The notes beneath the pieces were generated by a model. It saw only the letters and a list, made by a program, of their open reading frames with translations. It did no database searches and had not been told where the DNA came from. Position numbers and translations under genes: made by a program. 64,000 nucleotides of DNA, taken from positions 77,043-141,042 of the forward strand of contig JACOTW010000002.1 in assembly GCA_016178135.1 (NCBI GenBank), written 5' to 3'. This DNA is from Candidatus Saccharimonadota bacterium. Lineage in GTDB: Bacteria > Patescibacteriota > Saccharimonadia > Saccharimonadales > JACOTW01. Position 1 is the stretch's first letter. Each line of letters starts with the position of its first letter. This document shows positions 17,894 to 43,478 of this stretch, piece by piece.

Positions 17894-18260
17894 CCAGATT
17901 ATCGGCTAATCGCCCCGCATATGCGGGGAGGAAAGTCCGGGCAGCGTAGGGAAAGACAGTCGCTAACGGCGACCGGGGGTAACCCTAGGGAAAGTGCCAC
18001 AGAAACGAAACCGCCTCGCATATGCGAGGTAAGGATGAAACGAGTGGGGTAAAAGCTCACAGTTCTATACGGTGACGTATGGGAGAGGTAAACCCTGTCT
18101 GCTGCAAGGAGATGGACTCTCATCGGCTAAACCGATTGGTGTCCCGCCAGAGCCTATCATAGAATCCGCTTGATCCGTCGAGCAATTGGCGGACTAGATA
18201 GATGATTAGCAGCCCCGCATATACGGGGTGAACAGAACCCGGCTTACGGATAATCTGGTA
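17894..18260 (+). ncRNA. rnpB: RNase P RNA, bacterial type A
   Basis: Conserved 'GAGGAAAGTCCGGGC' near the 5' end and 'ACAGAACCCGGCTTA' near the 3' end. P1 pairs CCAGATTATCGG (17894-) with CGGATAATCTGG (-18258). Confidence 0.9.
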
Positions 18261-18305
18261 CTTTATGTCTACTGTCAACGTTTAATGTGATGGACGTTAA
18301 TTATT

Positions 18306-34440: not shown

Positions 34441-34724
34441 TCAACGAGCGCAACCCTTATAGTTAGTTGGATTTTTCTAGCTAGACTGCCCCGGTAACGG
34501 GGAGGAAGGAGGGGATGATGTCAGGTCAGTATTACCCTTACACCCTGGGCTAGAAACACGCTACAATGGCCGGTACAAAGGGCTGCCAAGTCGCGAGACG
34601 GAGCAAATCCCATCAAAGCCGGTCTCAGTTCGGATAGCAGGCTGAAACTCGCCTGCTTGAAGCTGGAATCGCTAGTAACGGTAGGTCAGCACACTACCGT
34701 GAATACGTTCCCGGGTCTTGTACA

Positions 34725-35525
34725 AAATAAATGCGCCTGGCAGCGCATTGGACTAAGTGGTGTAAATCCACTTTCATAGCTGCGAGCAGGGCATCTCTGG
34801 TAACAGAATGCCTGAAGGGCTCTATATGCGAATAGTAGTCTTTACAATCAAAAGGCGCTTCGACCCTACAATGTGTACATAGGGGAAGAAGACAAGAAAA
34901 GCCTGTAAGGAATGCTAGAAATAGCCCAATGCGTGACCCAGGGAGATCCTGTTGTCGAAGAGTAATTGTTTCGCTGCATAAGCGAATAGACAGCAGGAAG
35001 TCAGCTGAGTTCATAGTATTTTTTATAGTAAAATGTAAAGAAGAAGGAATGAACCTTATGCTGAATCCACAATACATTGTTGGTTTTGTTGACGGAGAAG
35101 GGTGCTTTAGCATCACTATCAATAAAAACGGCGATAGGTTACCAGAAGTTCGTCTCATTTTTGAGATAGAACTTCGGGAAGATGACGAACCAATCTTGCG
35201 AGAGATCCGAAAAGTTCTTGATTGCGGTAATATTTACCACTTAGAGTACGAGCGTTATGCCAAATGGCGACCGCACGTTAAGCTTAAAGTCAGCAATTTT
35301 AATGACATATCGCAAAAGATTATTCCATTTTTTCAACGGTATCCACTTCAAGCAAAGAAGCGTTTGCAGTTTGAACAGTTTTGCTTAGTTGCAGAGCTTA
35401 TAAAGCGCAAACAACATCTTACAATTGAAGGAGTAGAGCAGATTCGAACCTTAAGGCATAAGGACTCGCGTAGTGCGTTAGACGCGCACGCTACGTGGGG
35501 AGCGCCGGAAATTACCCGAGCGCAA
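34725..35525 (+). mobile_element. Intervening sequence / intron-like insertion in 16S at about E. coli 1396/1397
   Basis: The flanks reconstruct the universal ...CTTGTACA|CACCGCCCGTCA... (the 1392-1406 primer site). It carries a homing-endonuclease ORF. Confidence 0.85.
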
Positions 35526-35546
35526 TCACCGCCCGTCAAACCATGA
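35049..35546 (+). CDS. LAGLIDADG homing endonuclease (single-motif type) encoded in the 16S insertion
   Basis: 'YIVGFVDGEGCFSI' is the LAGLIDADG motif, and 'IIPFFQRYPLQAKK' is paralogous to the 23S intron ORF at 40707. The frame runs 21 nt into the downstream 16S exon before its TGA. The alternative start is 35058. Confidence 0.85.
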   Translation: MNLMLNPQYIVGFVDGEGCFSITINKNGDRLPEVRLIFEIELREDDEPILREIRKVLDCGNIYHLEYERYAKWRPHVKLKVSNFNDISQKIIPFFQRYPLQAKKRLQFEQFCLVAELIKRKQHLTIEGVEQIRTLRHKDSRSALDAHATWGAPEITRAQSPPVKP

Positions 35547-35833
35547 AAGTCGCCAATACCTGACGTCTGCACTTGCTGCGGCCTAAGGTAGGGGAGATGA
35601 TTGGGGTTAAGTCGTAACAAGGTATCCGTACCGGAAGGTGCGGATGGATTACCTCCTTTCTAGGGAGAAAACTAGCATCATGCGGAGCAATCCTGTGAGA
35701 GCTAGGTCGGTCTTGGTGAGTTGTAATATCAGTACTGACAACTCACATATCCCGCATATGCGGGACAAGATTTCAGTTCTGTAACTACGAACTTGACGTT
35801 TGATTTGCACTATAAAAGTTTTTAAAATATAGA

Positions 35834-35860
35834 GAGCCCTCTGTTGAGGGTTCTTTTTGT
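35834..35860 (+). terminator. Rho-independent terminator after the 16S unit
   Basis: GAGCCCTC-TGTT-GAGGGTTC followed by TTTTTGTTT, just 3' of the processing stem. Confidence 0.6.
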
Positions 35861-35962
35861 TTGACAAAACGAAGACGAAGATTGACAAAATAACAAGCTT
35901 ATGCTAATATAAAAGTTGTAATATGTAATAATTGATTATTTTGTAAAAGGAAAAGCAATAAT

Positions 35963-36304
35963 ATGACACGTAAAGTAGAAGAAAGAGAACTATTCTATAG
36001 TATTGATAGTGAAGGAAATATTGATCCGAGACACAAGTTGGTAGGTGCCTTAGCTGCAGGTTTTGCCACAGCTTTAGAAGATAATGGTTACATATCAGGC
36101 GGGGTTTATCAAGCAGGCATGCAAGCTATTTCACAAGGAAGTGAATACATGGCAGGATCTGCATGGGTTGGTGTGGGAGGTAGTTGGGGTGATCAGGTTG
36201 GTTTTAAAACTGACCAATACCCCGTACTCAGCGAAGAACAACAACATGATCTTGACACGGCCATAGGACTTGCCAAAGATATTGCAGGATTAACCAAATT
36301 ATAA
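35963..36304 (+). CDS. Hypothetical protein (Gly/Ala-rich) lying between 16S and 23S
   Basis: 113-aa ORF with SD AAAGGAAAAG upstream. No motif is recognised. Confidence 0.45.
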   Translation: MTRKVEERELFYSIDSEGNIDPRHKLVGALAAGFATALEDNGYISGGVYQAGMQAISQGSEYMAGSAWVGVGGSWGDQVGFKTDQYPVLSEEQQHDLDTAIGLAKDIAGLTKL

Positions 36305-36381
36305 ATGTAAGTTATATTATCGGTGAGGGGTAATGTATTGCTATGATTGTGATGGCTGAAAGCACTAGCAAGGAAAAGTTT

Positions 36382-36768
36382 TTAGATTTTGTCTGTAACT
36401 TTTGTAAGCAATAATTTTGCTACGGTTTGACCTGCTTCAAGAGTTATTGGGTTTTGACTGGCATTGAATAATTCAAGTGTAAGTGGGTTGTTCGTCCCAG
36501 GCTCAATAAATGTAGAAGACTGCTCAACGGACAGACCTTGCCTAGCAAGCGAGGCGCGACCTTCAACAAACCCGCAAATGTCATTGCTAAGATGTATTGT
36601 TTCAGCCGTTTCTACTGTTAAGAATTCTTTTGGTGTTAGTAGCAAATCTGAACTACCGCCAAGATGTAAATCTACATGAGCTGGCCCCAACCATTCAGGG
36701 TTGAAAGGCTCAATTTTTATCTTATCAAGTTCAATAGCTGCAAGTATCGCTTTTTTCGAGAAGATCAT
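36382..36768 (-). CDS. dcd: dCTP deaminase / dUTPase-superfamily protein (short form)
   Basis: 'IKIEPFNPEWLGPAHVDLHLG' and 'GFVEGRASLARQGLSV...PGTNNPLTLELFN' match the dCTP deaminase beta-barrel signature. At 128 aa it is shorter than typical Dcd. Confidence 0.65.
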   Translation of the reverse strand: MIFSKKAILAAIELDKIKIEPFNPEWLGPAHVDLHLGGSSDLLLTPKEFLTVETAETIHLSNDICGFVEGRASLARQGLSVEQSSTFIEPGTNNPLTLELFNASQNPITLEAGQTVAKLLLTKVTDKI

Positions 36769-37056
36769 GAAGCTATTTTACAATATATTCAGTTAATAAG
36801 CATAAGCGTCCGGAAATTTATAATGGCTCGGTTGCAACTTTTGCCTTTGGCTGACTCACGGCCCCGACTTATCTCAGGTAATAACTTAGGGCGATGAGGG
36901 GCAAACGCACGACTACACCCGTTCTCGGAGTAAACTCCTGCGAGCGGGCTTGTCGACCGAGCCTCCGACTTCCGTATTGCTGAAGCAATCCGAGTCGGAG
37001 AACCGAGGCGCTTCATTCACCAATGAAGAAGCCCCACTTGCGTGGGGCATCTTCAT

Positions 37057-37133
37057 TGGTGGGCGATGAGGGACTCGAACCTCCGACCTCGTCATTATCA
37101 GTGACGCGCTCTAACCAGCTGAGCTAATCGCCC
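37057..37133 (-). tRNA. tRNA-Ile (anticodon GAT)
   Basis: Reverse complement: GGGCGAT TA GCTC AGCTGGTT AGAGC G CGTCA CTGATAA TGACG AGGTC GGAGG TTCGAGT CCCTC ATCGCCC ACCA. Confidence 0.9.
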
Positions 37134-37232
37134 ACATCATGTGGATTTTAAGATGTAAATGTATCTGCTAACTGAGGTGTTAACGACCGGTTAGCGTGCG
37201 TTATGCGCTATATAATTTTGCAGTAAACTGCG

Positions 37233-37260
37233 CCAGCTGAGCTAATCGCCCTTGGTGGAG
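37233..37260 (-). pseudogene. tRNA gene fragments: 19-nt copy of the tRNA-Ile 5' end fused to a tRNA 3' end (CTCCACCA)
   Basis: The minus strand reads ...CTCCACCA-A-GGGCGATTAGCTCAGCTGG and then diverges. The 19 nt are identical to tRNA-Ile positions 1-19, and CTCCACCA equals the tRNA-Ala 3' end. Confidence 0.6.
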
Positions 37261-37294
37261 ATGCTTTGCTTGCGCATCGCACCCCCATGTAATT

Positions 37295-37371
37295 TGGTGG
37301 AGCGTCGGGGACTCGAACCCCGGACCCCCTGCTTGCAAAGCAGGTGCTCTAGCCAACTGAGCTAACGCCCC
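37295..37371 (-). tRNA. tRNA-Ala (anticodon TGC)
   Basis: Reverse complement: GGGGCGT TA GCTC AGTTGGCT AGAGC A CCTGC TTTGCAA GCAGG GGGTC CGGGG TTCGAGT CCCCG ACGCTCC ACCA. The G3:U70 identity pair is present. Confidence 0.9.
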
Positions 37372-37429
37372 ACAGGAAATTACTCGAGTAATTCTACCTA
37401 AAAAGGCCCTTTATTACAAGGTTTACGGA

Positions 37430-37890
37430 TAACCCAACTTTCGCACTTATGGACATAACATTCCAGCTTGCCCTGATTCCGCACTCATAATAACGACTTT
37501 CGCACTTTTCCATCGCCCCCGTTCACACCAAACCGGCTGCAAACAGTTTTTCTGTCCTCGATGTAGCCACAGCTACCTCTCCGCCAGATAAAACTGTTTC
37601 GCTCGGTTTGATGCAACCTGGCATCGACAGATATAGTCCCCGCAAAACAAATTCGTGGGTTTTTGAAGCAATGATCTTTGAGCCAAAAGCTGACTTTTCC
37701 GAGAGAGACATATCCTTAGATACGTTGAACGAGGAAAGGCGGTTTTGGGCCAAAGAGGGTGATTCGAAAAGTCGGGAATTTGTTTTGCGGGGGCTATAAG
37801 TGCGAAACTCGTGATAATTAGCACTATTTGACTCTCTGACGAATTGATCTGGGGATGGGGGAGCTTTGCGACAGATTCAGTATAAGTCCA
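37430..37890. repeat. Nested mosaic of families D, A and B (full B6 at 37633-37796)
   Basis: In order: D-left fragments (ACTTTCGCACTTTTCCATCGCCCC), the A centre, a full B (beta) copy with TA flanks, the D-right end (AGTGCGAAACTCGTG) and the A-right end (TCTGGGGATGGGGGAGCTTTGCGACAG). Confidence 0.8.
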
Positions 37891-38160
37891 GCACACGTAG
37901 TGCCCAGATTATTTAGTTTCCGAAACGTAACACCTTCCAAAATGTTGCAAGTTTAACATCATAATGTGCTTGACCGCCTCTGTTATTGGTGCTAAGATAG
38001 TTTGGCTACTTGAGTTTAGGCACGAGGTTATTTGCATAAACCGCCAAGCTTCCAGCGTAAACTCAAGCTTCTGGAATAAACTAATCATATTTAGTGAGAT
38101 GTTCTTGAGTTAGTAATTTAACAATTTAGGTTTAAATTAAAGTATAAGGATGACGAGTTG

Positions 38161-38188
38161 TTGGTATTACCAATAACTAGTCAAATGT
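38161..38188 (+). other. 5' half of the 23S precursor processing stem
   Basis: TTGGTATTACCAATAACTAGTCAAATG is complementary (~24 of 27) to 43255-43281 (GCATTGACTAGTTATTGGTGTTACCAA). Confidence 0.65.
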
Positions 38189-38908
38189 ACATATGGGATA
38201 ATTTATCTCATATATCGTAAAAAGTTACATAAGCGCACACAAGGGATGCCTTGACGTGAGATACCGATGAAGGACGTGAGAAGCTGCGAAAAGCTTCGGG
38301 GAGCTGCTTACTAAGCTATGAACCGAAGATATCCGAATGGGGAAACCCGGCTAGAGTCATGTCTAGTCACCCGTAATTGAATATATAGATTACGAGGCGG
38401 GAACCAGGGGAACTGAAACATCTTAGTACCCTGAGGAAGAGAAAGTAAACAACGATTCCGGGAGTAGTGGCGAGCGAAACTGGAATAGCCCAAACCTTTT
38501 AAGTTTTTGTCTGCTCATTTATGGGCGGACAAATAAGTTGGTAGACGAATATTTAAAAGGGGTTGTGACACTACAAAAAACCTTTTGTAGGACCTGGACG
38601 TAGTCCAGATTCTACATAAGGCGGCAGGAGCTACCATTATTCTGCATAAGGTTAGAAATTTGCGAGGTGAGCAGAAGGAATTGGAAAGTTCCGCCAGAGA
38701 CGGTGAAAGCCCGGTATGCCAAACTTCGCAAACCTTATATTTGTAGAGCTTGTGCCGAGCACAAGCGAGTGAAAAGATAAAGGTCTTTTGGATTTTTGCT
38801 TTTAACTTGCTCGTGCGAAGTGCGAGCGATTGTCGAGTAGGTCGGGACACGTGAAACCCTGACTGAATCCGGGACGACCACGTCCCAAGGCTAAATATAT
38901 CTTGCGAT

Positions 38909-38939
<31 letters not shown>

Positions 38940-40548
38940 TAAAAGAACCCCGGAAGGGGAGTGAAATAGAACCTGAAATTGTGTGCGTACAAGGAGTCGG
39001 AGCCCCGCATATGCGGGGTGACGGCGTGCTTTTTGTAGAACGATCCAGCGAGTTAATTATTACGGCAAGCCTAAGACATCTGTCGGAGGCATAGTGAAAG
39101 CGAGGCTGAATAGGCCGTTAGGGATTTATCCCTTAAGTCGTGGTAATTAGACCCGAAACCAGGTGACCTAACCATGGGCAGGTTGAAGCGCAGGTAAAAC
39201 TGCGTGGAGGACCGAACCGTCGAGTATTGCAACACTCTCGGATGACCTGTGGTTAGCGGTGAAATGCCAATCGAACCTGGAGATAGCTGGTTCTCCTCGA
39301 AATAGCTTTAGGGCTAGCGTCGTACGGTAGCATGTAGGGGTAGAGCTCTGTTTCGGACTGGGGCGCGTAAGCGTACTCACCCTTGACAAACTACGAATAC
39401 TACATGTGGAACTACGGCAGTCAGAACGCCGGGGCTAAGCTCGGCGCTCGAAAGGGAAACAGCCCAGACCATCATCTAAGGTCCCTAAGTCTATGCTAAG
39501 TGGGAAACGAGGTGAGATTTCTTAAACAACTAGGATGTTGGCTTAGAAGCAGCCATTCATTTAAAGAGTGCGTAACAGCTCACTAGTCAAGAGATCTTGC
39601 GCGGAAAATGTAACGGGGCTAAGCATAGCACCGAAGATATGGATGTCACATTTATGTGGCGTGGTAGAGGAGCGTTGATATTGCATTGAAGTTGGACTGC
39701 GAGGTCTGGTGGAGCGGTATCAAGTGAGAATGCTGGAATGAGTAACCATAAGGCAGGTGAGAATCCTGCCCGCCGAAAGAGCAAGGTTTCCTGGGCCACG
39801 ATAATCGTCCCAGGGTTAGTCGGTCCTAAGCCGAGGCGCGTAGCGTAGGCGATGGACAACGGGTTAATATTCCCGTACTAGTCATACATTGTTTGAAATG
39901 ACGCATCATGTTAGCAGGAGCGAATTCATGGTTATATTCGTCTAATCTCGATTAACGTCGGGAGAATGAAAAGCCATTTTGGCTGATTCTTGTGAGAGTG
40001 GTGACTAGAAAATCTTTCAAACTTGTGTGTATGGCTATCCGTACCGCAAACCGACACAGGTGCTCAGGTCGAGTAGACCAATGGCGTACGAGTGATTCTT
40101 CGTTAAGGAACTCGGCAATTTAGCGACCGTAACTTCGGGATAAGGTCTGCCCCGTCACAGTGTCTATGACATTCGTGACTTGCCAGTTTTCTTTTTGAAA
40201 ACAATAGGTGTCTTGGCGTAAGTTTTTAACTTCTTACGTTCAAGCGCAAAGACGAGCATCCACCAACTGGTGGATTGAGAAAAGAAAGCTGACCCCATAG
40301 AATTACGTTTTAGTAAGTCTATTAAGTCAATTATCGTGGTAGATAATGTGACGGGGCCGCAGCTAAGGAGCCCACGCAACTGTTTACCAAAAACATAGGT
40401 CTCTGCTAACACGAAAGTGGATGTATAGGGGCTGACTCCTGCCCAGTGCTGGAAGGTTAAGGGGAGTGCTTTACGGTGCGAACTGAAGCCCCAGTGAACG
40501 GCGGCGGTAACTATAACCGTCCTAAGGTAGCGAAATTCCTTGTCAGGT

Positions 40549-41256
40549 AATAAACTTGCCTGAAAAGCAAAGCGATTTGCTTAGAGTAAACCAACTAATA
40601 ACGGGGAAATCTAAAACTGTTTTCAACAGTAATGACAATCCCGTGGCAATCATTCGCTTTACATAGTGAATGGAAGCCGTAACGACTAATCCGAAAGGAG
40701 AGGTACATGATGAAAAATGTACAATACGTTGGCTCTCGCCCAAAAAAGGAATCCATGGAGTTTGCTTGGTATATTACAGGTTTTACAGATGGAGAAGGTT
40801 GTTTTTCGGTTAGTTTTAACCAGCGTGCAAAACTGAAAACTGGTATCGAAGTGAGACCAAGTTTTTCTATTGCACAGAACAAACGCAGCCTACAGGTATT
40901 GAAAGACATTCATGCCTACTTCGGATGTGGCGCGATTCGTTTCAGTAAGCGCGATCAAATGTATAAATATGAAGTACGTTCGATTAGCGATCTGAGGTTG
41001 CGAATTATCCCGCATTTTCAGAAGTTTCCATTGTTAACCAGTAAAGCTAATGATTTTGAGATATTCGCCAAGGTATGTGAGCTGATTCATCAGTCGCATC
41101 ACCTGAATGCAGAATATCTTAAACAGATCATCATACAGAGTCATCTTATGAATAAGTCTGGAATCAGACGCAATAGCCAAGATGAGCTTCTAAAGATTCT
41201 GGCGAGATGAAAAGATAGTCTGATCTGCTTGGAAACGAGCAGCTAACTAAACTATG
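40549..41256 (+). mobile_element. Group-I-like intron in 23S domain IV at the L1951-type site
   Basis: The exons rejoin to CCTTGTCAGGT|AAGTTCTGACCCGCACGAATGG. The 5' exon ends in U and the insert ends in G, the group I splice-site rule. It carries a LAGLIDADG ORF. Confidence 0.8.
40707..41210 (+). CDS. LAGLIDADG homing endonuclease (23S intron 1)
   Basis: 'WYITGFTDGEGCFSVSF' and 'IIPHFQKFPLLTSK'. SD AAGGAGAGG is upstream. It is a paralog of the 16S-insert ORF. Confidence 0.85.
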   Translation: MMKNVQYVGSRPKKESMEFAWYITGFTDGEGCFSVSFNQRAKLKTGIEVRPSFSIAQNKRSLQVLKDIHAYFGCGAIRFSKRDQMYKYEVRSISDLRLRIIPHFQKFPLLTSKANDFEIFAKVCELIHQSHHLNAEYLKQIIIQSHLMNKSGIRRNSQDELLKILAR

Positions 41257-41352
41257 AAGTTCTGACCCGCACGAATGGAGTAATGATGTGGGCACTGTCT
41301 CAACGAAGAGCTCGGTGAAAGTGCATTGACGGTAAAGATGCCGTCTGTCCGC

Positions 41353-41384
<32 letters not shown>

Positions 41385-41830
41385 ACAGCTTGACATTGGG
41401 CATAGGGACAACATGTGTAGGATAGGTGGGAGACTTTGAAGCTTTGGCGCTAGCCGAGGTGGAGTCATCGGTGAAATACCACCCTTGTTGTTTTTGTGTC
41501 CTTACGGGGACCACAATTTGCAGAGCAAATTGAGTAATTAGTATGCAACATTTATCACATAAGATAAATTACGCAGTATTACTCACGATTGGTCTTCAAG
41601 TTCTGGTTCCTGGACAGTGTCTGGTGGGTAGTTTAACTGGGGCGGTTGCCTCCCAAAGAGTAGCGGAGGCGTTCAAAGGTTGGCTAGGTTCGGATGGAAA
41701 TCGAATCGATAGTGCATACGCATAAGCCAGCTTGACTGTGAGGCCTACAAGCCAATCAGACACGAAAGTGGGAGTAAGTGACCCGTTGTATCGGCCATTT
41801 ATGGCCATTGAACGTGGGATCGACAACGCA

Positions 41831-41863
<33 letters not shown>

Positions 41864-41999
41864 TATAGCGCCCAATAGTTCACATAGACGGCGCTGTTTG
41901 GCACCTCGATGTCGGCTCATCTCATCCTGGAGGGGGAGCACCTTCCAAGGGTCCGGCTGTTCGCCGGTTAAAGAGGTACGTGAGCTGGGTTCAGAACGT

Positions 42000-42765
42000 A
42001 AATTACATTGCGTTCTACCACTGAGAAGTGGTAAAGTACGGATGTACATCGCATCAATGGTACTAAATTCGACTAATATCGGTGAAACCTTACTTTAAAG
42101 TTTCGAACGACTTAAAAAGGCAATACCGAGGGAAGACGAAATCGAAAGTGACTCAAGAAGAAAAGGCCTACATAGCTGGATTTCTTGATGGTGATGGTTC
42201 AATCATGGCTCAATTAGTTTATCGTAAAGATTACAAATTGGGCTATCAGATACGAACCAGTATAGTTTTCTATCAGAAAACTAACCATCATGATTTCATC
42301 CTTTGGCTAAAGGACCAGTTAGGCTATGGTTATGTTCGCACGCGTCGTGACGGCATGAGCGAGTACGCCATAGTTGGCTTTAGGGAAGTTAGTCATGTGT
42401 TGACACTTCTGTATCCCTTTCTTCATCTCAAAAAAGCATTAGCTGAACGTGTTATTGCCCTTATAGAGCAACATCCGTCTCAGCGAAAACTAACTGCACA
42501 GCAATTGGTCGTTTTGAGTAAGCTCGTTGATAAAACAGCAAGTTTTAATTACTCTAAAAAACGAACTAATACGAGCATGCAAGTTATAGCTTTTTTGCGA
42601 GAGCACAAGATTTTTGTCCCCGTAGAGACTGATTCTGCCAAATAGACCGGGCAGATGAGATGGGACCCACAACTAATGGCCCATCATACGTCGACCCCTA
42701 GTCTCAAGCACATTGAGAAAGGGAGAAGATATAGTCCGTGCCATCAGAAATGGTGGAATTACACG
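42000..42765 (+). mobile_element. Group-I-like intron in 23S domain V at the I-CreI (Cr.LSU-type) site
   Basis: The exons rejoin to GGGTTCAGAACGT|CGTGAGACAGTTCGG. The 5' exon ends in U and the insert ends in G. Confidence 0.85.
42082..42645 (+). CDS. I-CreI-family LAGLIDADG homing endonuclease (23S intron 2)
   Basis: From memory of I-CreI: '[16 protein letters not shown]' matches 'YLAGFVDGDGSIIAQI', '[17 protein letters not shown]' matches 'GVGYVRDRGSVSDYIL', '[24 protein letters not shown]' matches 'LQPFLKLKQKQANLVLKIIEQLPS', and '[10 protein letters not shown]' matches 'NDSKTRKTTS'. The start codon is uncertain (GTG). Confidence 0.85.
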
Positions 42766-43478
42766 CGTGAGACAGTTCGGTTTATATCCGCTGTGGACGA
42801 TAGGAAATTTGAGGGAATTTGCTCGTAGTACGAGAGGACCCGAGTGAACGCACCGCTGGTGTACCAATTGTCATACCAATGGCATTGTTGGGTAGCTATG
42901 TGCGGACCAGATAAGCGCTGAAAGCATATTAAGCGCGAAACTGACCCCAAGATTAGATTTCCCGGAGATTTATCTCTAGAGGACCCTGAAAGACGATCAG
43001 GTTGATAGGCGCAAGGTGAAAGTGCGGTAACGTATTGAGCCGAAGTGTACTAATAGTCCCATCGACTTTTTACGACCCATGAAATGTGCGCCGCTAATCT
43101 GGACACTTGGCTTTGCCAGGCCTATAGATTAGTTTTTGACACAAGATGTGATATTTTGTTTATGATACTAAAGGAATAGTATTTTTGTACAACTCCTCTA
43201 GGCTTATTTACATAACGTTGATTTTGTAATCAAACGCACACCTCATGGTGAAGTGCATTGACTAGTTATTGGTGTTACCAAGAGGTAACACACGATCCTT
43301 ATACGGCATTTATTGAAATATATCACAAGTGGTATAGGCATTGTATAGACTATATCGTATATGGTATATTCATGGACATCAACAGAGCGCCTACGGTGCG
43401 GAATATGGAATATTGAAGATGCTTCAAAAAAGCTAACTTCTACCTTCTACCAATTTCCGTGTCATCGAGACGCGAAAA

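Follow-up and report, generated by a model that had tools for sequence, protein, structure and literature searches.

Inserts of the 16IS9 type in CPR genomes were reportedly first noted by Brown et al. in 2015, and the 16S rRNA introns of Thiotrichaceae are said to go back to Salman et al. (PNAS, 2012). In the CPR, rRNA inserts in general are removed from the transcripts, according to Brown et al. as cited in PMC11270868. Tsurumaki et al. (2024, J Bacteriol, PMC11270868) found 53 group-II-like inserts in CPR genomes. All of these are located at site 16IS9 (around position 1400), and 39 of them carry a LAGLIDADG endonuclease. The authors concluded that the 16IS9 inserts move by DNA-based homing (PMC11270868).

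The second closely related system, from giant sulfur bacteria (Thiotrichaceae), is the rns-1396 family, the single bacterial family in a survey from 2026 that covers group II introns with LAGLIDADG genes (Liu et al., GBE, PMC13190283). It is IIC-like and has a single-motif endonuclease in domain IV (DIV), conserved IBS1 and IBS3, and no EBS2 (PMC13190283). A 5' terminal linker was described for this family and is present in all of its members (PMC13190283). Splice sites that lie upstream of the GUGYG motif are also found in two further groups. In fungal mitochondrial rRNA introns of class IIB1 the splice site is 1–33 nt upstream of GUGYG (Li et al. 2011, RNA, as cited in PMC4424553 and PMC4024640). 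The C.te.I1 intron of Clostridium tetani splices 8 nt upstream of GUGYG via a relocated IBS1–EBS1 pairing (PMC4424553; PMC4024640).

The window, which is the whole stretch of 64,000 nucleotides analysed, contains a single 16S rRNA gene, with the 23S and 5S genes downstream of it. When the 16S gene was aligned to the Rfam bacterial SSU model, the match stopped at 34724 (...CUUGUACA; longer, ...CCCGGGUCUUGUACA; model position 1387) and restarted at 35527 (CACCGCCCGUCA; model position 1388). The insert is thus 34725–35526, 802 nt in length. The insert, its parts and the flanking exon bases discussed below are all on the + strand. It separates GUACA from CACCGCCC, between A1396 and C1397 of E. coli, where the 1392–1406 primer site with its established numbering served as the ruler. 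The original prediction had placed the insert at E. coli 1396/1397, which the SSU model supports. It had also ended the insert at 35525 with a length of 801 bp, which is one base short, as the last base is T35526. The boundaries it had given, an exon ending in A and an insert ending in T, are those we observe.

No other register restores GUACACACCGCCCG, as position 34725 is A and not C, and position 35526 is T and not A. A slide of the splice register by one base was rejected, as the universal sequence is not restored. A 5' splice site at the AUGCG motif inside the insert was also rejected, because AAAUAA would then remain in the decoding centre. With the intron taken out, the 16S sequence is full length and scores 1337 bits in the Rfam scan.

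With the encoded LAGLIDADG protein as query, a protein search found 3025 homologues (E <= 1e-5), and for many of these the identity is 75–90%. The GTDB was scanned with one genome per GTDB species, and a homologue of the intron LAGLIDADG gene was found in 35 genomes (35 loci). Among the loci in which both exon flanks are readable, nearly all have the insert at the identical 16S site, and one (L034) has it <=3 nt away. The same insert and junction are present in about 30 other genomes. In nearly all of the readable-flank loci the intron starts with AAWUWA-A[U/G]GCG directly after exon GUACA, and ends in [A/G][A/G]U directly before CACCGCCC. The homologues and this shared site indicate that the presence of the insert at the 16S site is not chance.

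Taken together, the features described below make it highly probable that the insert represents a compact, IIC-like group II intron that is mobile, has a LAGLIDADG endonuclease in place of a reverse transcriptase, and would be removed by splicing. In the Rfam scan of the whole window, the group II model RF01998 (group-II-D1D4-1) matched 34967–35049 with 43.9 bits. The gathering score of this model is 35, so the margin is only about 9 bits. The E-values are 1.2e-4 for the window and 2e-6 in a local search. The match covers distal domain II, J2/3 and domain III (D3). The J2/3-D3 region extends up to 35049 and has a conserved stretch, GGAAGUCAGCUGAG followed by CAUAGUA. The gathering score of RF01998 is also passed at the equivalent place by 11 of 20 homologous loci. 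The Rfam model for D5–D6 (RF00029) gave no match to this region, either on 1.1 kb or on 91 nt at E <= 10. The identification of domains V and VI therefore rests on anatomy and covariation.

Covariation was assessed with 24 homologous introns for the 5' part and 26 sequences for the 3' part. Domain I spans 34736–34942. It was delineated with RNAalifold and pair counts, and is closed by CCUGG (34736–40) and CCAGG (34938–42). In addition to this closing helix, RNAalifold predicted several internal D1 helices and the D2 helix in the 5' part. Helices 1–8 of D1 are 93–100% paired, with compensatory changes in most pairs. Domain II (34943–35002) is a helix formed by GAGAUCCUGUUGU...ACAGCAGGAAGUC (helix 9). 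It is 95.8% paired and has five compensatory pairs. Over D1 and D2 together, 97.2% of the positions are paired in the 24 introns, and 39 of the 56 pairs show compensatory changes. The corresponding value is 29–50% when the partners are slid, and none of 500 shuffles reached the observed values.

The 5' exon, with its end as given by the SSU model, finishes in the five bases GUACA (34720–34724; E. coli 1392–1396), which are IBS1. Their exact complement, UGUAC (34874–34878), lies in the D1 loop GUGUAC (34873–34878), the EBS1 loop, which sits on a covarying stem. This loop is kept in 23 of the 24 aligned introns, and the remaining one (L032) has GUGUAU, which is wobble-compatible. The variants of the family are informative here. 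In L034 the intron lies 2–3 nt further downstream. Its exon ends in ...GUACACAC, its intron starts with AAAUAA, and its loop is GUGUGU, which is complementary to ACACAC. In L033 the exon is GCACA and the loop is CGUGC, where an A-to-G change compensates the U-to-C change. In L012 the loop GUGUAC is retained and the linker is 7 nt in length. These three variants support a role of the EBS1–exon pairing in setting the splice site. The first base of the 3' exon, C1397 (35527), is a candidate IBS3/delta' partner of G34873. Judging from the complementarity of GUGUAC and GUACAC and from the L034 variant, these two bases could form a pair similar to delta or EBS3.

At the start of the intron a 5' terminal linker, AAAUAA (34725–34730), separates the splice site from the 5' motif. 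The linker has the form AAWUWA throughout the 24 aligned introns, and L012 and L034 have one extra C. The 5' motif AUGCG (34731–34735) is the equivalent of GUGYG, with A replacing the first G. It lies directly before the first D1 helix, as GUGYG does in ordinary introns. AGGCG, AUGUG and UUGCG are the variants found in the family. The motif is thus not at the splice site but 6 nt downstream of the intron start. The departure from the textbook 5' end of a group II intron arises because the splice site is six nucleotides upstream of the GUGYG-like motif.

At the other end of the intron, 35465–35499 forms a hairpin of the domain V type (about 34 nt, with an AGC or CGC triad and a 2-nt bulge). The triad is C35467-G35468-C35469, with a central G.U, and the bulge is A35488-C35489. 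The CGC triad and the central G.U are both invariant. The lower helix has 9–10 bp and the upper helix has 4 bp. The loop is 5 nt and is not GNRA. The two helices of D5 are 99–100% paired, with five compensatory pairs. This hairpin appears to follow the canonical pattern, that of domain V in yeast ai5-gamma and in Oceanobacillus, in its lower helix, its bulge and its closing U.G.

Domain VI (35502–35523) has the form GCGCCGG-loop-CCG-A-GCGC. All seven of its pairs (7/7) show compensatory changes, and the bulged A is present in at least 90% of the sequences. In the window this is A35519, which precedes the 3' splice site by 8 nt and is the candidate branch point; the distance in group II introns is 7–8 nt. 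The intron ends in AY, as group II introns do. Its 3' tail is AAU (35524–35526), and AAU, GAU or AGU is found in the family. For D5 and D6 together, 97.2% of the positions are paired in the 26 sequences, with compensatory changes in 12 of the 21 pairs. When the 3' partners were slid by 1–3 columns, 31–46% of the cells paired. Elsewhere, 5' linkers accompany loss of the branch A and hydrolysis (PMC4024640), in contrast to the conserved bulged A seen here.

The open reading frame occupies domain IV (35049–35546). It encodes a LAGLIDADG homing endonuclease of 165 aa from the ATG at 35049, or of 162 aa from a second ATG at 35058. There is one match to the Pfam family LAGLIDADG_1 (PF00961), at residues 10–113 (E = 5e-23). 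The stop codon (35544–35546) is 20 nt inside the 3' exon. A single-motif LAGLIDADG protein with a frame that runs into the 3' exon had been predicted, and both parts of that description hold. About 25 codons at the end of the frame coincide with D5, D6 and the first 20 nt of the 3' exon. The homologues are 145, 153, 162 or 165 aa in length, and the position of the stop varies accordingly. From these differing ends, the read-through into the exon looks incidental to the RNA constraint. A functional extension formed by the C-terminal 25 residues was considered and rejected, given these lengths and a tail that comes from D5, D6 and the exon.

Comparison with the described systems places the intron among known elements. 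It shares with the CPR 16IS9 inserts the gene and the site, the Rfam group II assignment, a single-domain LAGLIDADG_1 ORF, the lack of a reverse transcriptase, and a CPR host. There are two differences. The 16IS9 survey found almost no intron or endonuclease inserts in Saccharibacteria (PMC11270868), whereas the intron is abundant in the Saccharibacteria-lineage genomes analysed here. The anatomy of the linker, EBS1, D5 and D6 is also not part of that paper (PMC11270868).

The likeness to rns-1396 of the Thiotrichaceae, compared by features and not by alignment, consists of the site after 1396, the single-motif LAGLIDADG protein in domain IV, the 5' linker, the conserved IBS1 and candidate IBS3, and a compact IIC-like core with a CGC triad. 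The hosts differ, being Gammaproteobacteria for rns-1396 and CPR here. The 2026 survey restricts the family to Thiotrichaceae and does not mention the CPR (PMC13190283). A protein search with L034, a member that is not CPR-like, returned none named Thiotrichaceae among the 50 matches listed.

The fungal IIB1 introns and C.te.I1, so far as they are described in the sources cited above, share with the 16S intron an upstream splice site set by a relocated IBS1–EBS1 pairing, the absence of retromobility, LAGLIDADG ORFs in some members, and an IIA-like recognition of the 3' exon adjacent to EBS1. In those same descriptions they lack the bulged A of D6 and are hydrolytic, whereas in the 16S family D6 covaries and its bulged A is nearly invariant. 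They also belong to another structural class: the fungal introns and C.te.I1 are IIB, and the 16S intron is IIC-like.

We infer that the insert is spliced by its own ribozyme. The transcribed RNA would fold into domains I–VI. The D1 loop UGUAC would pair with GUACA and so place the 5' splice site six nucleotides upstream of AUGCG, with AAAUAA bridging the gap. D5 would provide the catalytic centre. Water, or the 2'-OH of A35519 that bulges from D6, would cut the 5' junction, and the exon released in this step would attack the 3' junction after ...AAU. In the product GUACA would be joined to CACCGCCC, leaving the decoding centre uninterrupted.

Hydrolysis appears to be the more likely first step, by analogy with the linker-bearing introns studied so far and with IIC introns in vitro (PMC4024640; PMC4748821). 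If the first step were instead branching at the shifted site, a lariat with a 2'-5' bond from A35519 to A34725 would be formed. This is possible but on the doubtful side. It would account for the maintenance of D6 by compensatory changes at 7/7 pairs, and for a bulged A that lies the canonical 8 nt away and is conserved in >= 90% of the sequences. However, fungal IIB1 introns with 5' insertions and C.te.I1 splice hydrolytically (PMC4024640, PMC4424553), and in vitro a branched product is generally not obtained from IIC introns whose branch site looks normal (PMC4748821). This intron has also lost the first G of GUGYG.

A broader interpretation concerns the family as a whole, which, with its 3025 endonuclease homologues, is very widespread in the CPR. 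With its conserved 6-nt linker, covarying D6 and bulged A, it may represent branching at a first nucleotide other than G (a lariat with an A-A 2'-5' bond), or a new role of the linker, and it may be the same family as the rns-1396 introns of Thiomargarita. We consider this rather unlikely. If true, the family identity with rns-1396 of Thiomargarita would mean a cross-phylum spread that the 2026 survey missed.

Ribozyme-catalysed splicing, by either first step, has to be weighed against other fates of the insert. Fragmented rRNAs that result from the excision of intervening sequences exist in bacteria. Host endonucleases of the RNase III type could, in the same way, excise this insert without ligation and leave the 16S rRNA in two pieces. 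The absence of an RF00029 match would agree with this, and exon ligation is itself a prediction. However, the ends of the insert lack a conserved terminal stem and do not covary with each other: the 5' end consists of the invariant linker and AUGCG, and the 3' end consists of D6, which covaries separately. The compensatory changes maintain a full ribozyme core that a host nuclease would not need, and in the site variants the EBS1 loop changes along with the exon. Fragmentation at 1396/1397 would also place a break in the decoding centre. We thus regard fragmentation as very unlikely. The GCGC present at both ends of the window intron could pair and was considered as an RNase III terminal stem. 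It was rejected, as the 3' copy covaries within D6 and the 5' motif is constant.

It is scarcely credible that mature 16S rRNA still contains the insert, or that the gene is a pseudogene: the 16S, the only one in the window and upstream of the 23S and 5S genes, is full length apart from the intron (1337 bits), the decoding site would be disrupted by 802 nt placed between A1396 and C1397, and dozens of genomes share the arrangement, their ORFs and RNA helices being intact.

The 23S gene of the same operon (38218–43074) also has two inserts, each of which encodes a LAGLIDADG protein (LAGLIDADG_1). For the first (40549–41256; E. coli ~1917), the exon ends in ...CAGGU, the insert runs AAUAAAC...CUAUG, and the exon resumes with AAGUUC. 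For the second (42000–42765; E. coli ~2593), the exon ends in ...GAACGU, the insert runs AAAUUAC...UUACACG, and the exon resumes with CGUGAGAC. The Rfam group I model (RF00028) matches the first with 39.5 bits (E = 5e-8) and the second with 31.8 bits (E = 7e-6), in both cases below the gathering score. The original prediction had stated that both 23S inserts obey the group I rule, with an exon ending in U and an insert ending in G. The junctions confirm this, and RF00028 matches both. Like the 16S intron, they are mobile introns at conserved rRNA sites, driven by homing endonucleases of the LAGLIDADG_1 type. They differ from it in the U and G at their junctions and in the RF00028 match, as the 16S intron has neither.

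That the 16S insert is itself a group I intron whose splice junction is merely unusual can be dismissed with similar assurance: LAGLIDADG genes are typical of group I introns and the two 23S inserts of the operon are group I introns, but RF00028, which detects both of those, finds nothing in the 16S insert at E <= 10, the boundaries of that insert are A (exon end) and U (insert end), and the conserved helices fit D1, D2, D5 and D6 of a group II intron.

The 16S insert had been said not to follow group I splice-site rules. This is correct, with boundaries of A and U and no RF00028 match, and the rules are broken because the insert is not a group I intron. The apparent violation arose because the LAGLIDADG gene was assumed to imply a group I intron. 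The search with Rfam group I and group II models that had been suggested as a check matched the group II model RF01998 and no group I model in the insert. The expectation of a removal route other than that of group I introns was also sound, as a group II core is found instead (RF01998; covarying D1, D2, D5 and D6). The two routes then named, endonucleolytic excision leaving a fragmented 16S and retention, are not supported in view of this core, the EBS1 loop and the 3' AY.

The distribution of the group II intron was compared with that of its hosts. The window 16S exons are 92% identical to those of a Candidatus Saccharimonadales MAG (L002), the closest intron-bearing relative, which places the host among the CPR, in the Saccharibacteria lineage. 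Saccharibacteria or Saccharimonadales is also the label of more than 10 of the GTDB relatives, as it is of the host. The L002 intron is 75% identical to the window intron. The best intron match is L004, with 83.7% intron identity and 80% 16S identity. Intron similarity is thus discordant with host 16S similarity. The uninterrupted junction, ...GGGTCTTGTACACACCGCCCGTCAAACC..., which is the intron-less target sequence, was found in at least 120 metagenome contigs by an exact 46-nt search. Among the matches listed, intron-less 16S sequences are up to 93.9% identical to the spliced sequence of the window and align straight across the junction. As 93.9% compares with 92% for L002, some lineages with intron-less alleles are no more distant from the host than the nearest lineage that bears the intron. 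The pattern is that expected of a homing element and indicates that the intron is optional and mobile. The single-motif endonuclease, presumably as a homodimer, would cut intron-less 16S alleles, and the intron would then be copied in. Both the activity of the endonuclease and the spread by homing are deduced from this pattern.

Five of the loci (L021, L022, L025, L029 and L031) are labelled 'uncultured Gammaproteobacteria'. Their assignment to Thiotrichaceae was rejected, as they have a CPR-type 3' exon (...CGUCAAG). Where the 5' ends are readable, the introns of several such loci, for example L021, are near-identical to Levybacteria introns. These loci are probably mislabelled bins.

The element, its site, its endonuclease and the 5' linker are already in the literature. 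The removal mechanism at this site had been regarded as open; this does not stand, as group II introns with a 5' terminal linker and the CPR inserts near 16S position 1400 have been published (PMC13190283; PMC4424553; PMC4024640; PMC11270868). For the organism, the intron explains a 16S gene that is ~800 nt too long, and universal primers that span 1392–1406 would fail on it. For the family, the interest is modest and specialist. The branch adenosine is kept alongside the linker, and genomes of the Saccharibacteria lineage have the intron in abundance, where one survey reported almost no such inserts. The shared features also point to a possible link between the CPR and Thiotrichaceae introns.

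The reading frame of the LAGLIDADG endonuclease encoded in the 16S intron does not end within the intron. It crosses D5 and D6, the 3′ domains of this group II intron, and then continues for 20 nt into the 3′ exon (35465-35546 of the window). The position of the stop codon differs among the endonuclease homologues, which gives proteins of 145, 153, 162 or 165 amino acids. Constraint on the RNA alone may account for the strong apparent conservation of the protein tail.

Among the 35 loci in GTDB genomes that carry a homologue of this gene (numbered with an L), a few differ in the insertion site or the intron ends. In L034 (374-1200), from a bin labelled Elusimicrobia, the intron site lies 2-3 nt downstream, and the loop of EBS1, the D1 element that pairs with the end of the 5′ exon, matches it (GUGUGU). 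L033 (800-1770) has the exon GCACA, the loop CGUGC, and a longer, divergent 3′ end. The 5′ linker of L012 (2118-2990) is 7 nt long (CAAAUAA), and an insertion of around 38 nt separates D5 from D6 in L016.

The 16S 3′ exons of five loci in bins labelled 'uncultured Gammaproteobacteria' (L021, L022, L025, L029, and L031) are of the CPR type (...CGUCAAG). Among the loci with a readable intron 5′ end, several of these five (e.g., L021) have introns near-identical to those of Levybacteria MAGs. The bins have probably been mislabelled.

The 16S and 23S genes are separated by a spacer of approximately 2.5 kb (35660-38218). On its minus strand, in the reverse orientation to the rRNA genes, are tRNA-Ile(GAU) (37057-37133) and tRNA-Ala(UGC) (37295-37371). 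The spacer also has small ORFs, such as those at 36382-36768 (minus strand) and 35963-36304 (plus strand). The nearest 16S relative, the Saccharimonadales MAG locus L002, also has two minus-strand tRNAs 3′ of its 16S. The 23S gene spans 38218-43074 and contains two group I introns. The first (40549-41256; ORF 40707-41210) lies near E. coli position ~1917, and the second (42000-42765; LAGLIDADG ORF 42082-42645) near ~2593. The Rfam scan at the gathering threshold ends the 23S at 42101, short of the true end, because the second intron interrupts the gene. Elsewhere in the window, and unrelated to the 16S intron, the plus strand carries an RNase P RNA gene of bacterial class A (17894-18262, 262.6 bits).

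A 2024 survey found introns or homing endonucleases almost never within the rRNA inserts of Saccharibacteria (PMC11270868). Of the MAGs with a Saccharibacteria or Saccharimonadales label, more than ten have the 16S intron or its endonuclease (loci L001-L006, L008, L011-L014, L023, and L030).
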